Assembly (NCBI RefSeq): GCF_018977255.1
Contig: NW_024704742.1
Span: 17,982,001 to 18,046,000 of the forward strand
Reading direction: 5' to 3'
Length of the DNA stretch: 64,000 bases
Source of the DNA: Callorhinchus milii
Lineage: Eukaryota
Below, piece by piece: positions 9,935 through 43,346 of this stretch; position 1 is the first letter of the stretch; every line of letters begins with the position of its first letter. The translations under genes and the position numbers were made by a program. The notes under the pieces were generated by a model that saw only the letters and a list, made by a program, of their open reading frames with translations, was not told the DNA's origin and did no database searches.

Positions 9935-11730
9935 ATTACATTTGCATAGCGCCTTTCATGTTGGGAGGACGTCCCAAGACGCTGGACAGTCACTGTTTTG
10001 GACCCGAGCAGGGGGTTGGGATTGGGGAGGGTGGAGGACAGCGGGGGAGATCGAAAGCATGGTCGAAGAGGAGGGTCTTGAGATGGGCCTTGAAGGAAGC
10101 AAGGGAGGGGGTGAGGCAGAGGGATTGCAGGATGGAGTTCCAGAGGGTGGGGGCAGAGTGGCAGAAGGCTTGCCCGTCAATGAAGGGGTGGGCAAGGCGG
10201 GAGAAGCAGGCCAGAGCCTGCTGAGTGGAGGGAGCCAGCAGGTTGGTAGGGGGTTAGGACGTCGCAGAGGCAGGGGGAGCAAGACCATGGAGAGCTTTGA
10301 AGGTGAGGACCAGGATCTTGAACTGTATCCTCTGAGTGTTGGGAAGCCAATGGAACTGGGCAAGAATGGGGGTGGTAGGGTTGCGGAGCCTGATGAGGGA
10401 GAGGACACAGGCTGCAGAGTTCTGGATGATATGCAGCCTATGGAAGGAGGAGTTGGGGAGGCCGACAAGCAAGGAGTTTGCACAGTCAAGCCTCGATGTG
10501 AATTTACGAGGGTTTCTGTGGCCTGCGGTGTGAGACAGTGGCTGAGCTGGGCGATGTTGTGGAGGTAGGGGAAGGCAGAGCGGGTTATGGCATGAATGTG
10601 GGGTAGAAAGAATAGTTGAAGGTCAAACGAGATGCCAAAGTTCCGGACTGTCTTAGTAAGATGGAGTCGCTTCCATGGATGGTGATGCTGTCAGCGCCCG
10701 AGGTGTGGAAGCGCTGACAGGAGCCAATCAGGAGGGCCCCGGTCTTGTTGACATTCAACTGAAGAAAGTTAGCTCTCAGCCAGGATTTGATGTCTGACAA
10801 ACATTCTGTCAGGACAGTAGTGGTCCTGGAGCCAAGGGTAGAGGCAGAAAGGTTTAGTTGGGTGTCATGTGGAAGTTGACCCCATGTCTGCAGATGATAT
10901 CACCAAGAGGGAGTATATAGATATTGAAGACTTGAAGACCAAAGCACTGATCCCTGAGGAACGCTGCAAGAGACAGTGCAGGGGCTAGAGGATAAACCGT
11001 TTGTGGAGATGAAATGGAGGCGTGTGAGAGGTACGATCTGAACCAGTCAAGAACAGAACTGTGAAGGTTGAGGTGAGATGAGAGGTGGTGGATGAGGATA
11101 GAGTGGTCAACGGTGTCGAAGGCAGCAGAGAGTTCAAGGAGGACGAGGAGGTAGAGGGAGCCCTGGTCGCAGATGGACAGAATGTCATTTGTTACTTTGA
11201 CTAGGACTGTTTCTGTGCTGTGGGCAGCACGAAAACCCGATTGGAGGGGTTGTGAAGGGAGTGGCGGGAGAGGAAGAAGCGAAGAAAGGGAGGTTGGAGA
11301 TGGGGCTGTAGTTTGAGAGCAGAAATAGGTCCAGCGTGGGTTTTTTAAGGGTAGGAGTGATGAGATGGGATGGGAATGGTGCCAGTGGACAGTGAGAAGT
11401 TTATGATGTCTCTGAGTAGGGGGCAAGGAGGTGGAGCTTGGAGGTAAGGAGAGGGGTAGGGATGGAGTCGAGTGAGCCTGTGGTCGGTTTCATGTGGGTT
11501 ATATTGGTGATGAGAGAGGAGTGTGAGACAGCTTTGAAGGTGTGGAGGGAAGGATGGATAAGGGCTGGGGTGAGATGGGGAGAGCATAGTAGATGGAAGG
11601 GCAGAGGCAGCTGAGTGGATCCCCTCGACTTTGGATTCGAAGAAGTCCAGCATCGCCTCGCAGTTGGCATTGGAGCTGAGGATGGGCGAGGTGTGAGAGG
11701 GTGGAGAGGAGCCTGGGGTTAGCCTACTCC
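9935..11730 (-). mobile_element. L2-clade LINE fragment (RT and 3' end)
   Basis: [37 protein letters not shown]; same 3' terminus as the 41179 copy. Confidence 0.9.
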
Positions 11731-11762
11731 TTCAGCCTCCATCATGTTCTGAAGCTTGATGT

Positions 11763-12270
11763 TTGCCTACAGTGTGGTTCAGTTGGTCTCGCAATCTTGC
11801 CTCTCGAGTCTGAAAGTTGTGGGCTCAAACCCTTGGAACTCATACAGTATAAACTGATACTGCAATACAATGCTGTGGTGTGCTGCATTGTCATTCTGAG
11901 TACCATCCTTCAGATGAAACGTTAAACCAAGGCCTTGTCTGTCTGTTCAAATGGACGTTAAAGATCCCATAAAAACAGAAGTCGCTGGGAACACTCAACA
12001 GGTCAGACAGCATCGAAACAGAGAGGAAAATAAGTTAACGTTTCAGGTCAATGACCTTTTGTCACGTTTCATGTTGATGAAACTATTTGAAAAGAGAAGG
12101 GAGTTTATCGGGGTCCTGACCAACAGTAAGGCAAACACTGCTGTGCACAATTTGTCTGCTGCATTTCACCCACAAATATACAGTCAATTCACGATAGTAT
12201 ATTCTGTGAAGCACTTTGAGCCGTCTCAAAGACGTGAAAAATGCTATATCAAATGCAAGGATTATTATTA
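11763..12270 (+). mobile_element. Deu-domain-type SINE interrupted by a ~100-bp unrelated repeat fragment
   Basis: Core cttcagatgaaacgttaaaccaaggccttgtctg...ggacgttaaagatcccat / actatttgaaaagagaagggagtt resembles the DeuSINE central domain as recalled; same L2-like tail. Confidence 0.7.
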
Positions 12271-13849
12271 TATAATGGAATGCAATGAATATTGACAACG
12301 TTCCTGAAAAATAAGTGCCCTTACACTTTTAGGCTGATAGACCAGAGAACTATTCAGGATTCAGAATAGGGGTCATTGCTTCTGTACTCAGAGAAACGAA
12401 GAGTTGCATTCACTTTCAAGTTGAATATCTATTTATTATGGATATCGGATACCTTCGACCGCTTCATTTGATTTCTTGTAAATGCTACCTTCCCTCACCG
12501 TGAAGTCTGGATTAATTTGCCTTTCTAGTATGGCATAACTTAAAATGACTGCTGGTTTAGAGTTAAGTCTCTGATACTGGTTGAAGGGTTGGCTGTTCTT
12601 GTCTCATTTGGTTACTGTAGTTTTGAGTTTTTAGTTCATGGTGGAGCAGGAACACTCTTTCCAAAAATGGGTTGTGTCACACTCAGTTCAGTCACTGGGA
12701 ATATCTGTGGTGGAGCAGAAGCTGTATCTGCAGCACAAACTATTAGTGTAATTTTCCTGTATTATTGGCTGAGTTCCCTTTTTTAAATTATTCAATAGCA
12801 AATGAGACCGATGCTGCAATGATACCTTGGGATCAATTGCACAATTACAATGTCCCCTATCTATCAACCTTGTAAATTGACCACTTGGCAATGTCCCTTT
12901 ATATAACCAATTGTTCACATGCCATCAGCACTGTCAGCTACTGGAAATGTGAGAATATTGTGGAAAACATAAAACCCCATAAATCCCATATTTGAAACAT
13001 CCAAGGAAGCTACTTTTATTTGCCGAGTCAACAGAGTGAACAAGGAATACAGAGAGCAATAACATTTACCAACGCTTATAGAACCATGACTGGTATTCAG
13101 ACACCCGGTGATCAATCAATTGTCTCAGCAAATAGTTGACGATCATAATGATTAGCTGTGAAAATGCAGAGGTACTTAAAATAGACTAAAATAAACCAAT
13201 GGTGGCTATGTAAATGATAGGGAGTGAAAGTTAACCCAAAACAGGCTTTAAAGATACGCTGAAACAGCAGACCAAGAGGTCACATGTTCAGAGAGTTGTG
13301 AAGGACAGTTTTAGGGCAGCCAACAGGGAATGCACAGCCATGGACAGCCAGTGTGGTGCTGTATTGGGAATATGGTAGGGTTGGTATCCTGAAAGGTTGA
13401 GATCAAATTGACCCAATTCTTCATTCAAACCTCTCTTGTCAATTTAATTCTGACAAACTGAAATCCCTACTATTATTATCAACATCCTCTAATCTCCTTT
13501 ATTTGCCTAAACTCTCCTTTTCAGTTTAAGATAGAGGTCAGTAGTATTTACCAATTAACGTTTCTAACATCTAATATATACTGCTCACAAACTGCAACTA
13601 AATACATTTGGGGCGCAGAGGCATGCTAGAAAATAGAAAATTCTGCATGCAATATTTTAATATTACTTAATTATAATTTAGTTATAATATTATAATCATG
13701 GCCTTGTGATAACCAATGACTACTTTTGATGTGATCATAGCTCCAGTGATAATCACATCTTGCTTTTCCCCCACTTTGGGTGCATATTTCAACCTTGAGC
13801 GTTACAAGTAATTATTGCAATTGAGGTTAAAGGAGTAAATTCTCTCACA

Positions 13850-13898
13850 TACATTAATAATAAACAAAAGTCATGTTGCTGCTTTCTGTGGGTTTAAT
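13850..13898 (-). terminator. Candidate polyadenylation site of the KPNA4-like gene
   Basis: ATTAAA at 13898-13893 on the minus strand, CA dinucleotides ~10-20 nt downstream, then U/GU-rich TTTTGTTTATTATTAATGTATGTG. A second ATTAAA lies at 13966-13961. Confidence 0.4.
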
Positions 13899-14058
13899 CG
13901 TTATCCTGGAGGAGCAAATCCAAGTTTGGATACATTTACATACAACTGTGCACACTTTGATTTAATCCTGCAGAGAAGTAAATTGTGATTGAGCACAATG
14001 TTTTGTGATGCTTGATTTCAATGCAGGACTCCCGAAACAATGCCTTGTATTTTTTCTT

Positions 14059-15609
14059 TTAGAATTGAGTGCCATTTTCTGGGTTGTCTGTTGAAGAACT
14101 GAAAACAGGTTTGTCATCTTGCATTGCTTCTGGGGCCGGGGTAGACTCTTCATTTTCATCTGATGTCAACTGATCAAGGATGTCATAGGCCATCCTATAG
14201 ATATCCTCGTTTTCATGGAGTTGGAGCTGGTCAATCATTTGCAAACCTCCGCATTCTTCAATCTGGTGTGCTATGAGTTTCGTTTTATCGGTCGCTGTAT
14301 TAAGGATGTTACTTATTCCCTCGAGTACCACTAAAATTATCTGTGGGTCCACCATTGTAAGCAGGCTACAGAATGGAAATATCACATTCTGGTGGACCAG
14401 ATAATCAATCTGATCTTTTTGGCCAGAATTAGTTAGATTCGCTATCAGCCAAGCAGTTTCTTTCTGAACAGCAAAATCACTTTTGTCCATGAGATTTATA
14501 ATGAGAGGAATAAGGTTAGCATTGATCACGGCTTCTTCTTGTTGCTGGTTCCCGGCAGTCACATTGGACAGAAACCATGCTGCGTCCTTATTGACTTTTG
14601 TGTTCGGATGAGTGAGTAATGCTTGGAAGTGAGAAAGAGCTCCACAATTCAGGACTACTTGTGCTTGCTCATCAGTGCCCGTTACAATATTTCCTGCGGC
14701 TCGCAATGCTCCAGTCTGAACACTGATATCCTGGTGGCTGAAAAGCGGCACCAAGTAAGGAACTACTCCTGAATCTATAATCATCTGGATTTGTTCATTA
14801 TCACCATCTGTTATGTAGGAAAATATCAAAACCGTGTCTATCAAGATAGCAGTATCAGAGTGGTGGATAAGAGCACACAACTCTGGAAGGATTTCCTGTA
14901 CAACATTTTGGGATAAGGAAGGGTCCTTCCGTCGGCAGATATTTAGAATTACCCATGTGACTGTGCGAACAAAACTGAGGGACTTGGAAGGGTTGATGCA
15001 TGAAAGTAGCGGCTTTATCAACCCCAGGCCAATAATATAATCTCTAAATTTAGGCCCATCACTGATGATGTTGCCGATGGTCAGAAGCGCCTGTTCAGCA
15101 ACTTCCTCATACGTGGAGTCCAGCAACTTCAGGACAGATGGGACCACATTTGCCGTAATCACAGCTTCTGTGTTTTCAGCGGGACCATAAGCTATGTTTG
15201 CTAAAGTCCACGCTGCCTCTAGCTGTAACACATGGTTGTTGTCCTGTTGTATAAAGTGCACCAGAATTGGAAAAAATCCAGATTTGGTTATATCTTGAAT
15301 TGGTGGACCATAATTACTAGACATAAGTTCTCTGGCAGCTTTCAACCCACAGAGTTGAAGGTCTCGGTTATTGCTGGAAGTATTTCTTATGATTTCTTCT
15401 AGTGATGAGTTCTGGATTTTAAAGTCACTATCAAGCTCAGTATCTTCATCCCCTATTGGAACATTCCTTCGCTTTAAAAAGTGTTGGTCCCTTTTGATCT
15501 TTCTTAGTTCCACAACCAGCTCATTCTGTTGTCGTCTCACAGTCTCTAGATCACGCCCTTTTTTCTTGAAATTCCTTAGCCTTTGATTATCCAGTTTATT
15601 GTCTGCCAT
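14059..15609 (-). CDS. Intronless importin subunit alpha (KPNA4/importin-alpha3-like) retrogene, 516 aa, nested in an ABLIM2 intron
   Basis: Single uninterrupted ORF from ATG at 15609 (Kozak GAAAATGG) to TAA at 14059. N-terminus [25 protein letters not shown] with KRRNV, ARM repeats, IEECGGL...[10 protein letters not shown] and terminal ..QF are all colinear with KPNA4. No symbol given because it is a paralogous copy, not the multi-exon KPNA4 locus. Confidence 0.93.
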
Positions 15610-16415
15610 TTTCTTGCAGCTCGTTAGCGCCGATGGGTCGGTTTTAAAGAAAGACAAACAAATTAAAATGCCGTTAGGTTTTCTGTCCAATATTTCAAAA
15701 GCTTCTCTGGAATGGGTCACTCATTCTAACTTCTAAATGAAACAGAAGTGAATCACGACAATTTCAGAGATCATGATATTACTGCGAGGACTGTACAAAT
15801 AACAAATATGAAGTGGTGTTAATTCAAAGGACTCCCTCCTACTTACTTGCCTATGGCTGAGACTAGACTGTCATCACCTCAGCATTATGACAACATCTAA
15901 ATCAAGTCCCCCAACCAATCATACTTTATATTTCATCATAAGGATCGAGTTTTTCACTGCAACTCTTAGATTGGTTTGTGAAGGGCAAACCAATCAACCA
16001 GCTGGTAAACACTGCTCCTACTTAGTTAGAGCCTTTCAGTTTGGATGAGAAGATATCACAATTTCAAGACATCTTTCAAGACTAAAGAGCTCTAGCTTGT
16101 CCAATTACTGTTCATAGCTGATTTCTCTAATAATGGGGATCATCCTTGTTGTTCTCTTCTACACTGCCTGAATGTCATGGGAAGCCCCTTATATTGCAGT
16201 GACTAGAAATGTAATGCAGCACTCTTGGTTCAGCCTGATCAAAGCGCAATATAGCTTGAGAATGACATCTGGATATCTGACCTCTATTGATTTGGCAATA
16301 TAGCCCACCATCAAGTTTGCCTCATATTATTTGAATATGGCGAGCGATGAGTTAACTAACATCTAGATCTTTTTCTTCATGGTTTGTATGTGTGTCAGAC
16401 ATCTGGCTTACAGAA

Positions 16416-16484
16416 CCAGTAACCAAAAATCCTACAGCACCAGTAACCCAAAATGACTTACAGTAACCAAAAATCCTCTGGCAC
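16416..16484. repeat. Three imperfect copies of a ~22-24-bp unit
   Basis: cagtaaccaaaaatcct / cagtaacccaaaatgac / cagtaaccaaaaatcct. Confidence 0.7.
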
Positions 16485-18761
16485 AATTTTTATTCCTGTA
16501 GCTGTTCTACTGAGTTTTGCTTTTGAATCTCTCGTGTCATAGTGTCACTGTTAATGACATTGAACGTGGTATTCCTGGTGTCTAATGTTTCTGTAAGGAG
16601 AGTAGGAAAATTTGCTTTTCTTTCAGATGAACAACCAATGAATGATGGATGGAATATCCTTAGGAAAAAGACTGTTTAGTGTACAATGGTGCCAATTTGC
16701 CAAGTTAGCAAGTCAGTGATTTTACCCATGTTTAATTGGACTCATAACAATATAAACAAAACTGCAATGATTCTATCCCATGGCACTATTGGAAAAGAGA
16801 AGGGAGTTTCTCCCAGTGTTCTGGCCAACAAATCCCCCAAATGAAATTGGCCACTCACTCAATGACTTGTTTATGGGACACTGCTGTGCACAAAACTGGC
16901 TGTCGCATTTCACACACAAACATACAGTAATTAATTCCACTTTACAGTATATCCTGTGAAGCACTTTGAGATGTCTCAATGATGTGATAAAGAACTATAT
17001 CAAATGCAAGGATTATTATTGCTATAAAAAACACAACATAAAAATTTCACAAAACTGACAAAGTATACAAAGAGAGATTATATTTAGCAGTAGCGATACA
17101 TTCAGTGTGCCCTGGGTGACATCACTGAAAAAATGACCTAACAAAGCATTTTTGAGCTGAGCTGATAATTCTGAATCACTGAGCCACACCAGGTGTCTGC
17201 TCAGTCTTGAAGTATATTTGTCCCAGAAAATGTTTTCAGCTGACAAAGACCAACCTCAATTAGGATCTTGTACTGCATGAAAATTGGTCGAAGCTGCTTT
17301 ATTAAAAGCTATTTTAACAACAGCAACTTGCCTTTATAGAGTGCCCTTCACATAGGATTACATCTTGGAATGCTTGGTCACTAATGCAAGAGGCATTTTC
17401 TGACAAGAATCTAGCAAATAACAAAATATATTTGAGAAGTAGCAACCACCTGGGTCTAGAATTATTCTATTTACTTGACAGTTCATAGGGTAAATTTTGT
17501 AAATTTGGTATTTTGTAAATTGGAATTTGGTAAATTGGTGAATTTGGTTAAGCTGTTTTTTTTGTACTTCCCAAAAGAACTGGCTTCTGAATTAAGGTTA
17601 TATTCAAGAATTTGTCAATTTCTTGACACTAGAATACTAAATAAATCGAATAAATCTTAGATCTGGGAAGAATTTCTCCCCCATTGTCTATTCCCATTTG
17701 TATTGGATATGTGTCATAAAATGGATGATTCCTTACATTTACCTTTACATTTGAGGCTTCCTCTCCCAATATAGCTTTTAATCTGAGGTGGAAGAACAGC
17801 TAAAGGACAGTCATGTCAATTGAGCAAATTTTGAATTCCATCAAATCTACTGCATGCTTTAGCAGCCATGTTTCAACGGATTCTAATAAATTGTGCATTT
17901 GAACTCCTGTCCACATCGGACAGAGCTCAGGACACCATCATTGTCTGGGGAAGTGTTCCAAATACAGGAGATGTTGCATAAATATTTCAAATTGGCTTCT
18001 GGAGGCCGCTTGGATTCATAGACCTCCAGCACTCCTGTGTTCCTGCCATAATCAAACAGATGTTTCAACCAGAAAATGTATCAAGGTTTTTCTTGGATGT
18101 TGCACTCACTGAGGCTATTTTTCTAATTCTGCCACTATTCTTGTCTCTGCTACACACATGTGGTACATTCCTCACTGTGGTAAACACAACAACAAAAAAA
18201 CACTGAAGTAAACAAAAATAAAAAAAAACATAAACCCAATGCCATCAACTCCAAAACCAGTTTGTAATCTGATTCATTATAAACTTATTGTGAATACTCC
18301 CCTGATAGTTCAGTTGCATTGGTACTGCTATCTAATCTAACAATAATAATAATAACTGATATCTAATATGTGAGTTTTGCTAATCATATGTAAATATAGG
18401 AACACAATGCGAATTAAGAACTATTGGAAAGGAACACACAATTATTATTTTTTAATTTATTTAAAAAGTTAAAGGCATTTCTGATTCCCTCCGCACACAT
18501 ACTTGCTATTTTTTGATTAGACACGTGTCCGACACATGTGAAAACCCATCACCTTGCTTAAAACTATCCAAACCAATCCAATCCAAATGCCTACGTATTG
18601 TTGCCATATGTTGCAAATTATCCCCCACTGTTTATATGTCCAATTTAAATTCAGCCATGCTGTACCAGCTCTGGGAATATGCAGGAAACCAGCCAATCCA
18701 CACCGGAAATCAGAGTGCACTTACCGTAACCACATGTCCTCAGAATACCCATGCTCTAAGG

Positions 18762-19092
18762 AAACCTCTAGCCTTATAATGGGGTCACTCTGCAAAGCAG
18801 CCAGGGTTTTACTCCAACCTCTCTGCTGAATACTGTGCGAGAATGTGGGATTGTGTGTTTGTGTATGTGTGTGCATCGAAGTGTACCCTGGTGCAGAGAA
18901 GATTGGGCACAGTGACACCCACTGTCCGCAATGGTCATTTGGGGGATTATACTGTTGGTTGGATGCACGGCTTGAACCTGTGGACCTTTCTACCAGCATG
19001 GATCAGCTTTTTCAAAATAAGAAGTCTGAACATATGAAGCAGTAAAATCTTGGCTGCTTTGCAGAGTGATCTAATTATAAGGGTAGAGGTTT
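18762..19092. repeat. 52-bp inverted repeat pair (MITE/foldback-like)
   Basis: 18762-18813 versus the reverse complement of 19041-19092: 46/52 identical by manual alignment. Confidence 0.8.
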
Positions 19093-20306
19093 GTGATCCT
19101 GAGATACGAGGGCTGGAGGTCACCATCTCAAGCTTCAGACTCTGGGACAGGGAAATGTTTCAATTCTTGGGCGTCTGCACAGGTGATCTAGTAACCTGCT
19201 GGAGACCTCAGGACACAGTGAGTGCAGGCTGACTGTATCTGGTAAAAGGGCATTGCAAGGTTATATCTTGGATATTCTGTGATTCTGTCTGCAGGCGTTT
19301 AATGCGCCAGAGAAATGGATTTTAATGCTGTTCTATTCTTGTTTCAAGGGCCTAAATAAGATGTAAGGCAGCTCTTGGCAAGAACGAGAAGGATATTATG
19401 TGCAGACACACAACAGTGGCATTTGAGGCTTTGTTACAGTAAATATAGGTCATGAAGCACTTATTCCCACTAAACGCCTGTCGTCAACATAACCCTCCTC
19501 TTTCTATGGTTCCTAGATTAATTCTACTTAGAATTTGTTTTGGACCCTTGCAAGTTGCTAAGCAACAGCATAGCATCTGTGAAGAAATGAACCTGTCAGT
19601 GGGATGGTCATACATAGGTTGAGTATTGCTGATTGTATTAGTACTGTGGGACCTACAATACAACAACAAATTGTGTTGTTATAGGGCCTTCACGCATGGT
19701 TTGTTCCTTATTCTTGAGAAGGAATTCCCTTTTCATTTTGCCCAAGGTAAGAACACCTTGAACACTTGGGCACTGCAGGTTGGGTGTGAGTTCAATCCAG
19801 GGAAAAATCACATTGAATTGAAACCAAAAAAAAGCCATTTGATTTCCATTTTAGATCATTGGAAACTGGTACAATACAATGAGTTCAAATCGTCATTTAA
19901 TTCACAACATTGCAAAATTTAATTTGGAGAGAAGAAGACAGCAAAATGATCCTGGATGTGTCAGTGCAAATGTAAACTAAAGATCATGTTGTATAAAAGA
20001 GATAATTTTTTGCATTAATTGGGACCAGCTCTATACACAGATAATTGGTCATCAGGCGAAAAAAATTGGCTATGATGCTAACCAAAAAGTTTTTCCGTCA
20101 GGAGCTACACCATACACGGTAGACCCTTACTGCACGCTTCACTCTCTCGGCCACTCATTTTGCCAATTATTTCTCTTCAACTCTCCGAGCACCTCTCAGA
20201 GCAACTTCAGCAACTGTGAAGGAGAGGGAGGGACCTATCACAATAAGGGTAATAAGCAAGTTCCCCTTTGCCATTCCCCATCATTTTATGCAGATGTTTT
20301 ACTTAC

Positions 20307-24997: not shown

Positions 24998-27900
24998 GGA
25001 GAAAAAAGGGCTGAGATCCTACAGGGAGAGTGTTAGAAGCTACGGAATAAGCTAAAGAGTAGGACTCAAAGGTGGTTATCTCTGAGTTACTCCCAGTCCC
25101 TTGTGCAAGTGAGTGTCAAAATGGCAGGATCAAACACATGAATACATAGCTGGAGAAATGGTGCAGGCTTCTGGGTCATTGAGACCAGTTCTGGGGCAGG
25201 TTGCACCTGTACAAGGTTCATGGGTTACACCTGAACAGGGCTCAGACCAATGTCCTCGCAGGGAGGTTAACTCGTGCTGTGGGGAGGGTTTAAACTAATT
25301 TCGAGAGGGGAAGGGAATCAAGATGTAGCATTAGAGAGGACAAACAAGTTACAGAGAGGGCTGGGAGAGACAAATAGCATTGTAATCAGAAATAATTCAG
25401 AAAAAGGAGGCATTAGATGGGGGAGAAATGCAGAGCAGATTAAGTTAGTCATGAAGGGCATGTGCGTAAATGCACAGAGTGTGACAAATAAGATTGGTGA
25501 GCTGCAGACTCAAGTTGCCACATGGGGTTATGATGTAGTATCAATAACGGAGACCTGACTCAAACAAGGGCAGGAATGGGAGCTGAATATTCCTGGCTAC
25601 AATATATTCAGGAGGGATAGGGAAGGAAAAAAGGAGGGGGTTGGCAATATTGATTAAAGACTTGGTTACGGCCCTGGAAAGGGACGATGTGCTAGAGGGT
25701 CCAAACGAGAATCGATTTGGTTAGAGTTAAGGAGCAGAAAAGGATCTGTTACTCTGTTAGGTGTATACCATAGATCACCAAATAGTGGGAAGGCGATAGA
25801 CGAGCAAATCTGCAAGCAGATTTCAGAAAGATGCAAAACCGTTAGAGTAAGGAAAAGGAACAATCAAAGGTGAAGATACTCAACTGGAAGTGAGTCAAGA
25901 AGGGACCTAGCCAAAGTGATCTGGAAAGAAAGGTTGGCAGGTAAAACAGCTAACGGGCAATGGGAAACCTTCAAGGAGGAGATAGTTCGTGGACAGAACA
26001 AATACATTCCCACAAAGGGGAAAGGTAGTGCATCCAAACCTCCCTGGGTGAATAAGGAAATTGGGATTAAAATAAAACAGAAAAAGGAAGCTTATGATAA
26101 ATGTCAGGTCCAAAATACAGAAGATAATCAAACAGAATGTACAAAATACAGAGGAGAACTGAAAAAGGAAATAGAAGGGCAAAGAGATTGTATGAGAAAA
26201 GATTAGTGGATAACATAAAAGCCTAAGGTATTTTATAAGCATATAAAGAATAAAATATTAGTCAAAGATAGGGTGGGTCCAATTAGGGACCAACAAGGAA
26301 ATCTTCTTGTGGAGGCAGAGGACATGGCTGACATACTGAATAAGTACTTTGCATCTGTCTTCACAAAAGAAGAGGATGTAGCCAATGCCACAGTATCGGA
26401 GAAGAGGGTAGAGAAATTGGATAAGATAAGAATAAACCGAGAGCAGGTATTAAAAATGTTGTCGGTGCTCAAGGTAGATAAGTCACCCGATCCGGACAGG
26501 ATGAATCCTAGGTTACTGAGGGAATTGAAGGTCGAAATAATGGAAACTCTGGACACAATCTTTCAATCTTCCTTGGACACTGGGGTGGTGCCAGAGGACT
26601 GGAGGGTTTCAAATGTTACTCCCCTGTACAAAAAGGGGCAGAAGTATAAACCTGGAAACCACAGGCCAGTCAGCCTGATGTCAGTAGTGGGGAAATTTCT
26701 GGAGACTATAATCCAGGACAAAATAAATTTTCACTTAGAAAAATATGGGTTAATAAAGGACAGCCAACATGGATTTGTTAAAGGCATATCATGTCTAACA
26801 AACTTGATAGAGTTTTTCGATGAGGTACTGGAGAGGGTGGATGAAGGTAGTGCAGTTGATGTAGTTTATGTGGATTTTCAAAAGGTGTTTGATAAAGTGA
26901 CACATAAGAGACTTGTAAGCAAAATAGAAGCCCACGGTATTAAAGGGACAGTGGCAGCATGGATACAGACCTGGCTGGGAGACAGAAAGCTGAACATGGT
27001 GGTGAACGGTTGTTTTTCTGACTGGAGGGAAATTTTCAGTGGTGTCCCCCAGTGATCAGTATTGGGACCACTGCTATTTTTGATCTATATAAATGACCTG
27101 GACCTGTGTATGGGGAGTACAATATCCAAGTTTGCAGATGATACTAAGCTAGAAAAAGTAGTAAACAGTGAGGAGGATAGTAGCAGATTGCAAATGGACA
27201 TAGACAGACTGGTAAAATGGGCAGACACGTAGCTGAAGTTTAATGTGGAGAAATGCAAATTGATGCATTTTGGGAGGAAGAATGAGGAGAGGCAATATAA
27301 GCTGATGGTACAATCTTAAAGGGGTTGAAGGAACAGAGAGACATGGGGGTTCATATAAGTAAATCTTTGAAGGTGGCAGGACAGGTGGATAAAGCTGTTA
27401 AGCAAAGCATACGGGATACTTGGCTTTATAAATAGGGGCATAGAATACAAAAGTCAGGAAGTTTTGATGAACCTTTTATAAAACACTGGTTAGGCCTCAG
27501 CTAGAGTGCTGTGTTCAGGTCTGGGCACCACACTTTAGGAAGGATGTCAAGGCATTGGAGAGGATGCAAAGGAGATTTACCAGCATGATACCAGGAATGA
27601 GGGACTTCAGGAGAGGCTATAGAAGCTAGGATTATTCTCCTTGGAGCAGAGAAGATTAAGAGGAGACTCAATAGAAGTTTTCAAACTTATGAGGGGATTC
27701 GATAGGGTGAACAGGGAGAAACTATTTCCATGTGGCGGGTCGGTTGGTAACCCAAGGGCACCAATTTAAAATAGTTGTTAAAAGAAAGAGAGGGGAGGTG
27801 AGGAGAATTTTTTTTTACACTGCGAGTTGTTTGGATCTGGAATGCATTACCTGAAAGGGAAGCTGATTCGATAACGGCTTTTAAGAGAGAAGTAGATAAT

Positions 27901-30368: not shown

Positions 30369-33300
30369 GTCATAGGGGATACAATAGTGAGAGGTGCAGA
30401 CAGACGTTTCTGTTACAGAAAACAAGAGTCAAGGATGGTACGTTGCCTCCCTGGTGCAACAGTCTTAGACATCGTCGAAAGGGTGGATAATATTCTTCAG
30501 GGGGAAGGAGAACATCCAGAAGTGGTGGTCCAGGTGGGGATCCATGATATTGGTAAAAAAAAANGTGCTGAGACTCTACAGGGTCAATATCAAAAGCTGG
30601 GGAAGATGCTAAGGAATCGAACATCCAAGGTGGCGATCTCTGGATTTCTCCCTGTGCCTCGGGCAAATAAGTACCTGAATGGCAGGATCAAGCATATGAA
30701 TGCTTGACTGGAGAAATGGTCCAGAAAAGAGGGCTTCAAGTTTCTGGATCATTGGGACCATTTCTGGGGCAGGTGGGACCTGTATCATATGGATGGGGTG
30801 CACCTAAACAGGGCTGGGGTGAAGGTGCTTGCAGACAGGCTATCTAATGCTGTTGGGGAGGGTTTAAACTAGTTTTGAAGGGGAAAGGAAATGCAAAAAA
30901 CGAAGAGCTAGAAAATGGGAGAAATAAAACAGGAAGGAAGCGCAGAACAGGTCAAGTCGGTCTTGGAGTCCATGTGCCTAAATGCATGGAGTTTAGCAAA
31001 CAAGAGTGGTGAGCTGCAGGCTCAAGTGGTCATAGGGGGATACGATGTAGTAGCAGTAACAGAGACCTGGCTCAAACAAGGACAGGAATGGGAGCTGAAT
31101 ATTCCTGGCTATAATGTATTCAGGAAGGATAGGGAAGAAAAAAAAGGAGGGGGTGTGGCAATGTTAGTCAAAGATACGGTTATAGCCGTGGAAAGGGTCG
31201 AGGTGCTGGAGGGCCCCAAAACGGAATCTATCTGGTTAGAGTTAAGGAACAAAAAAGGAGCTGTTACGCTGGTAGGGGTATACTATAGACCACCAAATAG
31301 TGGGAAGGAAATAGATGAGCAGATCTGCAAGCAGATCTCAGACAGATGCAAGGCCAATAGAGTCGTGATAATGGGGGACTTTAATTATCCCAACATAGAC
31401 TGGCAAAACAACAGTGCAAAGGGCAAGGAGGGGGAAAGATTCCTAAAATACATACAGGCAACTTTCTTCATCAGTACGTTTCCAGCCCAACAAGGAAGGA
31501 AGCAGTGCTAGATCTAGTTCTGGGAATGAAGTAGGGCAAGTGGAGCAGGTTTCAGTGGGAATAGAATCTGGTTAATAGCGATCATAACATCATTAAATTC
31601 AAAGTGCATATGGAAAGAGACAAGGAACCATCTAAGGTAAAGATATTCAACTGGAAGAGGGCAAATTTCAGTGAGTTAAAAAGAGACCTAGCCAAGGTGG
31701 ACTGGAAAGAAAGATTGGCAGGTAAAACAACTAAAGAGTAGTGGGAAGTCTTCAAGGATGGGATAGCTTGGGGACAAAATAAATACATTCGCACAAAAGA
31801 GAAAAATTGGGCTTCAAACCTCCGTGGATGACGAAGGTAATTGTATCTAAAATGAAGCAGAAAAAGGAGGTGTATGACAAATGTCAAACCCAAGATACAG
31901 AAGACAACCAAATCAAATATAGGAAGTGCAGAAGAGGTTTGAAAAAGGAAATAAGAGGGGCAAAAAGATTATACGAAAAANGGTTAGCGGGTAACATTGA
32001 AGGGAATTCTAAAGTATTTTACAAACATATCAAGGTAAAAAAGGCTAGTCAAAGGTACGGTGGGGCCAATTAAGGACCAAGGCGCAAATATTATTGTGGA
32101 GGCAGAGGGCATGGCTGATGTGCTGAATGCGTACTTTGCATCTGTCTTCACAAAAGAAGTGGATGCACCAAATGCAGTTGTAAGGGAGGAGAGGGTAGAG
32201 GAAATGGATAGGATAAGTATAAACATAGAGGAAGTACTGAAAAGGTTGTCTGCGCTGAAGGTAGATAAGTCGCCCGGTCCAGACGGGATGCAACCAAGGT
32301 TACTATGGGAGGCACGGGTACAAATAGCGGAGGGTTTGGCTACAATTTTTTAATCTTCGTTGGACACAGGAGTGGTGCCAGAGGACTGGAGAGTGGCCAA
32401 TGTGACTCCCCTGTACAAAAAGGGACAGAAGGACAAATCTGGGAACTACAGGCCAGTCAGTCTAACATCAGTAGTGGGAAAACTCCTGGAGACTATAATC
32501 CAGGACAGAATAAATCTTCACTTAGAAGAATATGGGTTAATTAGGGACAGCTAACACGGATTTGTTAAAGGCAAATCTTGTGTAACAAATCTAATAGAAT
32601 TTTTCGATGAGGTAATGGAGAGGGTGGATAAAGGTAAAGTTGTGGTGAACAGCTGCTTATCTGACTGGAGGGAAGTGTACAGTGGTGTCGCCCAGGGATC
32701 GGTATTAGGACCACTGCTCTTCTTAATATACATAAATGATCTAGACTTGGGTATAGCAAGCACCATTTCCAAGTTTGCGGACGACACAAAGTTAGGTAGG
32801 GTGGTAAACAGTGAGAAGGATAGGAGCCAACTGCAGGAAGACATAGACAGAATGGTAAAATGGGCAGACACATGGCAGATGAGTTTCAATGTGGAGAAAT
32901 GCGAAGTAATGCATTTTGGTAGAAAGAATGAGGGGAGGCAATACAGGCTGGTAATACAATCTTAAGGGGGGTAAAAGAACAGAGAGACCTGGGGGTTCAG
33001 GTAAATGAATCCTTGAAGGTGGCAGAACAGGTAGATAAGGCTGTAAAAAGGGCAAATGGGGCATAGAGTACAAGAGTCAGGAGGTTATGATTAACCTATA
33101 TAAAACACTGGTTAGACCTCAGTTAGAATACTGCGCCCAGTTCTGGGCACCACACTATAGGAAGGATGTTAAGGCATTGGAAAGGGTGCAGAGGAGATTT
33201 ACGAGGATGGTACCAGGAATGAGGGACCTTGATTATGAGGAAAGACTAGAGAGGCTTGGATTATTCTCATTGGAGCAGAGAAGGTTACGAGGAGACCTAA

Positions 33301-41178: not shown

Positions 41179-43346
41179 AACAACAACAACAACAAGATTA
41201 CATTTGTATAGCGCCTTTCACGTCGGGAGGACGTCCCAAGGTGCTGGACAGTGTACAGCATTTCAGACCCAAGCTGGGGTCGGGGGGGAGAAGGGGGGAG
41301 GGAAAGGGGGGGTGACCAATGGCATGGTCGAAGAGTAGGGTTTTGAGGCGGGACTTGAAGGAGGCTAAGGAGAGGGCGAGGCGGAGTGATTGGGGAATGG
41401 AGTTCCAGAGGTTGGGCAGAGTGGCTGAAGGCTCTCCCACCAATGCTGGGACGGGTGGGTCGGGGGACGTGGAGCAGGCCAGAGCCGGCTGAGCGGAGGG
41501 AGTGAGCGGGTTGGTAGGGGGTTAGGAGGTTACAGAGATACGGTGGGGCGAGACATTGAGGGCTTTTTAAGTGAGGACCAGGATCTTAAACTGGCTCCTC
41601 TGAAGGATAGGGAGCCAATGGAGTCGGGTGAGAGTGGGGGAGATGGGGTCACTGAGTTTGGTGCGGGAGAGGACACGGGCTGCAGAGTTCTGGATTATCT
41701 GCAGCCTGTGGAGGGAGGAGTTGGGAAGGCCGACAAGCAGGGAGTTTGCATAGTCGAGCCTGGAGGTGATGAAGGCACGAACAAGAGTTTCAGCGGCCTG
41801 AGGGGTGAGGTAGTGGCGGAGTCGGGCGACGTTACGGAGGTCATGGAAGGTAGAGAGGGTCATGGCTTGGATGTGGGGAAGAAAAGACAGTTGAGGGTCA
41901 AACAAGACACCGAGGTTCCTGACTGGCTTGGTGAGTTGAAATGAGCAACCATGGAGGTTGATGCTGCCAAAGCCTGAGGTGCAGAGGCGCTGGCGCGAGC
42001 CAATCAGGAGGGCTTCAGTCTTGTTCACATTCAACTGCAGGAAGTTTGCACTCATCCAGGACTTGATGTCCGACAGACAGTCTATCAGGACAGCAGTGGT
42101 CCTGGAGTTGATGGTGGAGGCAGAAACATACAGTTGGGTGTCATCTGCATACATATGGAAGTTGACCCCACATCTGCGGATGATGTCACCAAGGGGGAGC
42201 ATGTAGATATTAAAGAGGAGAGAGCCAAGGACAGAGCTCTGGGGGATGCCAGACATGACAATGCGGGGGCTGGAGGAGAGACCATTAGAGGCAACAAAGT
42301 GGAGATGGTGAGAGAGATAGGAATTGAACCAGGCAAGGGCAGATCCGTGAAGATTAAGTAAGGAGGAGGCGGTGTATGAGGATGGAGTAGTCGACAGTGT
42401 CAAAGGTGGCAGAGAGGTCGAGGAGGAAAAGGAGGCAGAGGGAGCCCTGAACACAGATATTCAGAATGTGATTAGTGACTTTGACCAGGGCTGTTTCCGT
42501 GCTGTGGGCAGTGTGGAAGCCGGATTGGAGGGGTTCAAAGAGGGAATGGCGAGAAAGAAAGGAGAAGAGCTGGGAAGCGACGACTCGTTCCAGGACCATA
42601 GAGAGGAATGGGAGGTTAGAGATGGGGTGGTAGCTGAAGAGCAGGGATGGGTCCAGGGAAGGTTTTTTCAGGATGGGGGTGATGACGGCTGTTTATAGGG
42701 GGGTTGAAACTGAACCGGTTGACAAGGAGAGGTTGATGTCGTCGGACAGGAGAGGGGCCAGTAGGTGGAGCTGGGAGATGAGGAGAGAAGTGGGAATGGG
42801 ATCGAGGGAGCAGGTGGTGGGTTTGAGTTTGCGAATAATTGCGGAGAGGGAGGAGGAAGAGATAGGGTCGAAAGAGTATAGGTGGTGGGTGGGTCATGAG
42901 GGAGAGGTGATGTGGGGGTGGCTGTGGACGGGGCAGAGGTGGCTGAACGCATACCCTTGATTTTGGTTTAGCGGAAATCCAGCATCTCCTCCCAGTTGGA
43001 ATTTGAGGAGAGGATGGGCGAGGCATGGCAAGGGGGATGGAGGAGACGGTTTGTGGTGCAAAAGAGAAGCCGGGGTTTGTCCTTTGCCTCCAAGATAACC
43101 TTGGAGTAGAAGGAGGATTTGGCGGAGGCAAGAGCGCAGCTGTAAATCTTGGTGTGGTGAAGCCAGATCTGCTGATGGACCATTAGTTTGGAAGTGGTCC
43201 AGATGCGTTCAGCAACTCGCACTTGTGCCTTGAGGGAACAGAGATGGCTGGGGTGCCAGGGGGATTTACGGGAGTATGAGGCAGTTCGGGGGTGAGGGAG
43301 GCCAGAATGGAGGAGAGGGAGTTGTGGAGAAAAGAGAGTGAGGAGG
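41179..43346 (-). mobile_element. L2-clade LINE, 5'-truncated, RT region plus 3' end with (GTT)n tail
   Basis: Minus-strand ORFs [57 protein letters not shown]; (AAC)n on + at 41179-41194. Confidence 0.94.

Follow-up and report, generated by a model that had tools for sequence, protein, structure and literature searches.

The DNA analyzed here, hereafter the window, is a stretch of 64,000 nucleotides (nt) from the elephant shark Callorhinchus milii (contig NW_024704742.1, positions 17,982,001 to 18,046,000, assembly GCF_018977255.1). It carries on its reverse strand an intronless, full-length importin-alpha gene that is a retrogene of KPNA4. We consider it probable, at about 60%, that this is a functional and ancient retrogene specific to cartilaginous fishes, encoding an importin-beta-dependent import adaptor whose major cargo-binding site has been retuned. 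The evidence comes from the gene's relation to its parent, from its orthologues in sharks and rays, and from the residues fixed in its cargo groove.

The predicted product has the domain order of an importin-alpha (Table 1). It carries the importin-beta-binding (IBB) domain and ten armadillo (ARM) repeats, matched by Pfam PF00514 in seven stretches (E 1e-61), the last repeat being the atypical Arm_3. The P2 aspartate is present, and the minor site for nuclear localization signals (NLSs) is unaltered. The Asn ladder, with its Tyr on ARM5, is complete (N138, N180, N223, Y265, N307, N349 and N391), while the Trp array of ARM2, 3, 4, 5, 7 and 8 retains four of its six members. The best solved relative was human importin alpha-3/KPNA4 (5tbk), to which residues 1-516 aligned with an E value of 2e-212. 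An AlphaFold2 model built from a 30-sequence alignment gave a mean predicted local distance difference test (pLDDT) score of 81.8, with residues 70-484 mostly above 90 and folded as a helical solenoid. In this model, the groove motifs discussed below all fall in helix 3 of their repeats.

The genome of the same species, assembled into 1762 contigs with a total of 991.5 Mb, holds three multi-exon KPNA3/4-type genes, on contigs C11, C4 and C15. The C11 gene has the KPNA4 ending ...AEGFQF, and the UniRef KPNA4 entry of Callorhinchus milii matches two of its exons with 100% identity. The C4 gene closes with ...KEFNF, and no C-terminus was recovered for the C15 gene; these two KPNA3-type genes may include a retained extra paralogue. 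The copy in the window is one open reading frame (ORF), while the parental KPNA4 was matched in at least 10-11 exon-sized segments. The copy lies on contig C1 and the parent on C11, and the C-terminus of the copy is of the KPNA4 type.

The homology with the parent extends beyond the coding sequence (CDS). An element of 94 nt in the 3' flank matched the 3' untranslated region (UTR) of the species' own KPNA4 with a score of 55.4 bits, where 200 shuffles reached no more than 36.5. Its parental counterpart lies about 560-650 nt after the KPNA4 stop, and the match spans the polyadenylation hexamer (ATTAAA in the retrogene, AATAAA in the parent). The 5' flank (1091 nt) gave no match to the KPNA4 locus above shuffle level. 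We have assigned the locus to KPNA4 retroposition on the grounds of its missing introns and of the 3' flank, in which similarity to the parental 3'UTR persists. That the element is 74% identical despite a coding dS of 0.6-1.0 suggests that it is itself under constraint. The 3' flank is single-copy in the genome, apart from a second copy of the locus on the small contig C44 (524400-525947). The ORF of that copy is 100% identical, and the identity covers 4548 bp with flanks, with 0 mismatches and 1 gap; redundancy in the assembly or a very recent duplication is the most likely explanation.

We have then compared the retrogene product with a collection of 5.8 billion proteins. The closest entries were five clusters at 65-68% identity, labelled "importin subunit alpha-3-like" or "hypothetical protein" at their source, with canonical KPNA4 at about 61%. 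A clade of 16 sequences was assembled, made of the window copy, proteins of 13 named elasmobranch species and two unnamed Logan proteins. The named species are sharks (Rhincodon, Hemiscyllium, two Chiloscyllium, Stegostoma, two Scyliorhinus and Carcharodon) and rays or skates (Pristis, Mobula, Hypanus, Amblyraja and Leucoraja). When a profile of the 16 sequences was run against the same collection, six clade clusters scored 999-1114 bits and canonical KPNA4 at most 870 bits; no clade member from outside the cartilaginous fishes was seen among the 120 matches listed of 874.

A maximum-likelihood tree of 21 rows placed the six rows of the clade in one group (support 100/100), nested in a KPNA4 clade of 14 rows (100/100) on a stem of 0.35 substitutions per site. 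The protein thus groups inside KPNA4 but is not the KPNA4 orthologue of the species: it is encoded by a separate intronless locus beside canonical KPNA4, at the end of that stem and of a tip branch of 0.36. Within the group, the window copy was sister to sharks plus rays. Since the holocephalan copy is sister to the elasmobranch copies, the retrogene predates the split of chimaeras from sharks and rays. That split is roughly 400 million years old. We excluded the UniRef entry V9KI83 from the tree, since it matches exons at two separate loci of the genome: residues 186-243 are 98% identical to C15, and residues 301-344 and 404-458 are 100% identical to C11. This entry looks like a chimeric transcript model.

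Comparison of the retrogene with parental codons (282 pairs) gave a dN of 0.24-0.26 and a dS of 0.64-0.97. At 344 positions the 15 elasmobranch copies all agree; the window copy differs at 75 of them, and these 75 replacements were conservative, with a mean BLOSUM62 score of +0.85 compared with -0.33 expected for neutral single-nucleotide changes (none of 10000 resamples reached +0.85). On these sequence comparisons, constraint on the copy is real, yet relaxed relative to the parent.

The proposed retuning of the major site was judged against what is known of NLS binding. The Trp side chains of importin-alpha sandwich the aliphatic parts of NLS Lys and Arg residues (PMC4892583). In mouse importin-alpha, the double mutation W184R/W231R weakened the binding of a major-motif peptide, whose dissociation constant (Kd) rose from 2.1 to 690 uM, and left the Kd of a minor motif unchanged (8.4 vs 10.4 uM; PMC4548243). 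In the autoinhibited and CAS-bound forms, the KRR motif of the IBB sits in the major site and the RXXR motif in the minor site; importins without these motifs, such as KPNA7, are weakly autoinhibited (bioRxiv 10.1101/2021.10.25.465662).

We have mapped the contact residues of mouse importin-alpha (PMC4892583) by their offset from the ladder tryptophans and tabulated them in a MAFFT alignment of the 16 clade members and 114 canonical KPNA3/4 hits. The equivalents of W184 (ARM3) and W273 (ARM5) were Leu in 16/16 clade members and Trp in 112/112 and 114/114 canonical proteins, respectively. That of S149 (ARM2) was Tyr in 16/16, against Ser in 114/114. T151, Thr in 114/114, was replaced by Pro in nine members and Ser in seven; G191, Gly in 111, by Ala in 15 and Ser in one; and E354, Glu in 108, by Asp in all 16. 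The other 20 tabulated positions were canonical in the clade, in 16/16 except for A148 (14 Ala, 2 Val) and Y277 (14 Tyr, 2 Phe). They comprise the other four Trp, all Asn, A148, T155, D192, R238, D270, Y277, D280, R315, V321, G323, K353, S360 and E396. The T137A, S141Y and T143P changes of the window copy adjoin the P2-pocket Gly of ARM2, and the Gly to Ala or Ser change lies beside the P2 aspartate of ARM3. In all, every species has replacements at two tryptophans and at four residues near them in the major and linker region.

A preliminary description of the DNA, which compared it with KPNA4, had proposed that the major NLS-binding groove is remodelled while the minor site and the IBB are kept, and had placed the remodelling at 14815-15210, which is exactly W134 to Y265 (ARM2-ARM5). 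The individual substitutions were all recovered in the alignments. These are QAVWALGN to QALLTIGN in ARM3, with the Leu176 codon (CTG) at 15082-15084, and DTVWALSY to DTVLIFSY in ARM5, with the Leu261 codon (TTG) at 14827-14829. The changes NIASGT to NIAYGP, RNVTW to RTVTW, GDG to SDG and, in the IBB, RRQR to RRQQ were each seen against human KPNA4. The WxxxN motifs that it described as surviving on ARM2 (W134/N138) and ARM4 (W219/N223) are indeed present, as are the Trp/Asn pairs of ARM7 and ARM8 in the minor site and the KRRNV motif of the IBB. The RRQQ form occurs in 16/16 clade members, and R28Q belongs to the 30 fixed differences that show no variation inside the clade. Neither KPNA4 nor the two KPNA3-like genes of the same genome carry these substitutions. 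All three multi-exon genes keep the canonical motifs: EQAVWALGNIIG and DTVWALSYLTD are retained in the C11, C4 and C15 genes, and WALTNIASGT was seen in C4 and C15, the two genes whose ARM2 exon was matched.

Thus, the part of the proposal that stood is that the changes are real and clade-wide, with the minor site and KRR intact. Its implied concentration of changes in the groove was borne out only marginally, and the alternative of an even spread comes close to describing the data. With the groove face defined as the helix-3 offsets -4, -3, 0, +3, +4, +7 and +8 from the Trp position, fixed differences fell on 5/21 positions of the ARM2-4 face (p=0.084), on 2/21 of the ARM6-8 face (p=1; only E>D342 and I>N394) and on 9/49 of all groove-face positions (p=0.155), and 2/20 of the literature contact residues were changed (p=1). 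A strong enrichment in the groove was dropped on these figures and on those for ARM2-5, given below.

The conservation of the groove within the clade was more informative. There, 40/49 groove-face positions were invariant compared with 229/467 elsewhere (p=9e-6), making the groove the most conserved part of the protein, and 18/20 literature contact residues did not vary across the clade. Read from these alignments, the groove is in use, in a new fixed state. We infer from the sequences that cargo specificity would be altered and autoinhibition weakened.

We propose the following course of events. A processed KPNA4 mRNA would have been reverse-copied into the genome at a time when the lineages of chimaeras and of sharks and rays had not yet separated. 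In the copy, the major and linker part of the cargo groove then took on a new, fixed form, with Trp to Leu on ARM3 and ARM5, Ser to Tyr, Thr to Pro or Ser, Gly to Ala or Ser, Asn to Thr on ARM4, and RXXR to RXXQ in the IBB. Its product would still act as an importin-beta-dependent import adaptor, but its major pocket would no longer sandwich classical Lys and Arg side chains between three tryptophans. Monopartite classical NLSs and the protein's own autoinhibitory KRR segment would be bound less tightly, so that cargo choice would shift to the intact minor site and the C-terminal ARM repeats, or to a dedicated signal fitting the Leu/Tyr-lined pocket. Judging from the predicted protein, the retrogene probably carries a different set of cargo.

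Several observations weigh against this reading. Of the 368 positions with at least 95% conservation in canonical KPNA3/4, 60 carry clade-fixed differences, and these are scattered along the whole protein. Their excess on the ARM2-5 groove face is marginal (7/28 vs 53/488 elsewhere, p=0.033) and is lost when only canonically conserved sites are considered (7/26 vs 53/342, p=0.16). The tip branch of the window copy has about double the length of the corresponding root-to-tip path in sharks and rays. Because KPNA4 evolves very slowly, most of the pairwise dN but only about half of the dS falls on the retrogene lineage, and the dN/dS of this lineage would, by rough estimate, perhaps be around 0.5-0.75, a considerable relaxation. 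The point of attachment of the clade inside KPNA4 received supports of only 47-55, so that its origin may precede or follow the divergence from bony vertebrates. The intronless state was read in the window copy. Binding of classical NLSs may be weakened only mildly, since Trp to Leu keeps a hydrophobic side chain. Finally, no evidence of transcription was obtained. Contigs of run X1, which is guessed to be RNA, showed a flat depth of ~5-7 over window positions 10000-20000, the gene being equal to its non-coding surroundings. They include one contig of 2065 nt over 13729-15793, and runs X2-X4, also guessed to be RNA, gave scattered short pieces; neither says anything on transcription.

The strongest competing explanation is that the groove was recruited for a dedicated partner or a non-transport role, for example a germ-line or mitotic one in which it would bind a spindle or chromatin factor, with NLS import not being the main job. 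A conserved but different groove would fit one co-evolving partner as well as a new class of signals, and the fixed differences extend all over the surface rather than being confined to the groove. There is also a precedent in Drosophila, where importin-alpha retrogenes became testis-enriched (PMC8645118). However, the parts needed for the transport cycle (IBB, KRR, minor site and Arm_3) are conserved in 16/16 clade members. We regard it as unlikely.

Less probable still is a decoy or dominant-negative protein, an option that the preliminary description had also raised, which would bind importin-beta, and perhaps CAS, through an intact IBB and, being cargo-less, damp classical import. The retained IBB and the lost central Trp of the major site are compatible with it, and the RXXR to RXXQ change would suggest an open IBB by analogy with KPNA7 (bioRxiv 10.1101/2021.10.25.465662). 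A decoy would not need its groove, and yet the invariant groove-face and contact residues include the Asn ladder, D184, R226 and the Trp, Asn and Glu sets of the minor site. This conservation makes a cargo-less decoy improbable.

An origin in which KPNA4 was duplicated as DNA and later lost every intron would agree with the 1758-nt 3' flank, in which no run of at least 7 A, as a poly(A) remnant, was found, target-site duplications not having been searched for. Neither a poly(A) tract nor target-site duplications are expected to survive at such an age. Duplication would moreover require every intron to have gone at once, and would have to account for the position of the copy on a contig other than the parent's and for parental homology that reaches into the 3'UTR with none found in the 5' flank; we give it very little credence compared with retroposition. 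The least tenable alternative is a processed pseudogene or neutrally drifting copy with a frame open by chance, for which one could cite the missing introns, the neighboring retrotransposon fragments, the long terminal branch and the absence of RNA evidence, but which is contradicted by random substitution of the CDS (frame open in 389/5000 simulations at K=0.05, 5/5000 at K=0.16 and 0/5000 at K=0.24 or 0.40), by full-length orthologues in 13 named species, and by the conservative replacements and invariant core and groove residues.

The adaptor reading can be taken one step further. The gene could represent an eighth, chondrichthyan-specific importin-alpha subtype, derived from KPNA4 by retroposition, in which the major pocket was rebuilt from a tryptophan sandwich into one lined by Leu and Tyr. 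This form would have been kept fixed from a time before the divergence of chimaeras and sharks, for a non-classical signal or for a dedicated, possibly germ-line, cargo. We put this forward tentatively, as a proposal with the odds somewhat against it.

The remainder of the window consists mostly of reverse-transcriptase and endonuclease fragments of long interspersed nuclear elements (LINEs), and no other host gene was recognised among the 35 window ORFs of at least 120 amino acids that were scanned. The ORF2 fragments coincide with stretches in which G strongly exceeds C, with a skew of up to 0.42. The gene is bracketed by two segments of very high copy number, at ~11970-12271 and ~16776-16953 of the window and about 4.7 kb apart. 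Their summed contig depth is about 1e5 and many contigs join the pair; they look like copies of one interspersed family and not like target-site duplications.

Table 1. Coordinates of the retrogene, its parts and related features (window numbering unless a contig is named).
Feature	Position	Strand	Basis or remarks
Full-length importin-alpha CDS, intronless, KPNA4-derived	14059..15609	-	single uninterrupted ORF, 516 codons + stop
IBB domain, residues 10-87	15349..15582	-	Pfam PF01749, E 9e-16; low pLDDT
IBB RXXR motif, changed to RRQQ (R28Q)	15526..15537	-	alignment to human KPNA4
IBB KRRNV, retained	15460..15474	-	alignment; K46, R47, R48, N49, V50 invariant in 16-member clade
ARM2 helix 3, W134..P143: Trp and Asn kept; T137A, S141Y, T143P	15181..15210	-	alignment, clade table
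ARM3 helix 3, Q173..D184: W>L176 (CTG), V>L175, G>S183; N180, D184 kept	15058..15093	-	
ARM4 helix 3, R215..R226: N>T216; W219, N223, R226 kept	14932..14967	-	
ARM5 helix 3, D258..D268: W>L261 (TTG), V>I257; D258, Y265, D268 kept	14806..14838	-	
ARM6-8, R303..N391: linker and minor NLS site	14437..14703	-	all literature contact residues kept
Atypical C-terminal ARM, Arm_3, residues 446-493	14131..14274	-	Pfam PF16186, E 2e-18
3' flank match to own KPNA4 3'UTR	13853..13946	-	70/94 nt identical, co-linear, 113-206 nt past stop
Non-LTR (long terminal repeat) retrotransposon ORF2 fragments (RVT_1, Exo_endo_phos)	10854-11489, 26219-27055, 30912-31511, 32555-32965, 41567-42460	both	
KPNA4 (parent)	C11 ~17.450-17.462 Mb		
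KPNA3-like genes	C4 ~15.558-15.574 Mb; C15 ~10.507-10.519 Mb		

Few recognition surfaces in eukaryotes are, to our knowledge, as invariant as the Trp/Asn array of importin-alpha. Here, the central Trp of the major site and the linker Trp are replaced with the remainder kept, and this state is held across a whole vertebrate class, which makes the gene a candidate for a lineage-specific import pathway. In our search of the literature, in which subscription-only papers were outside the scope, no paper describing the chondrichthyan gene was found; the proteins of the clade are already in databases under an automatic name.

The closest known system is KPNA4/importin alpha-3 itself (5TBK, 6BVV, 4UAE), with which the retrogene product shares domain order, length and C-terminus, and the gene its 3'UTR homology. 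The two differ in that the retrogene is intronless and only about 61% identical, whereas the divergence between KPNA4 orthologues of different vertebrates is a few percent (tip branches 0.002-0.05), and in the 60 fixed differences, among them the W>L changes of ARM3 and ARM5, the S>Y of ARM2 and the R>Q of the RXXR motif.

Drosophila provides the nearest parallel in mode of origin. As described in PMC8645118, where Phadnis et al. 2012 is cited for the fly retrogenes, alphaKap4 (from importin-alpha3), alphaKap2A-H and alphaKap5 are also retroposed and persist as diverged paralogues, and alphaKap4 shares an alpha3-type parent with the chondrichthyan gene. According to the same text, the fly copies are without an IBB, young, repeatedly gained and lost, and testis-enriched, whereas the chondrichthyan gene keeps its IBB, so that it is not of the alphaKap type in this respect, and is common to chimaera, sharks and rays. 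Retroposed nuclear-transport genes, documented so far mainly in Drosophila, would thus be able to become permanent in vertebrates too. If the gene does represent an eighth subtype, vertebrates would have a counterpart of the fly alphaKap retrogenes, though one in which the IBB and the transport cycle have been retained.

Among the vertebrate paralogues, KPNA7 belongs to the KPNA2 subfamily. This protein, importin alpha-8, is likewise divergent, and its altered IBB basic motifs are tied to weak autoinhibition and an open state (bioRxiv 10.1101/2021.10.25.465662). The mouse W184R/W231R mutant (PMC4548243) likewise lacks the ARM3 Trp. The mutant carries Arg at ARM3 and ARM4, whereas in the chondrichthyan protein ARM3 and ARM5 have Leu and the ARM4 Trp is retained. 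The latter protein would offer a natural specificity variant with which to ask what each tryptophan contributes.

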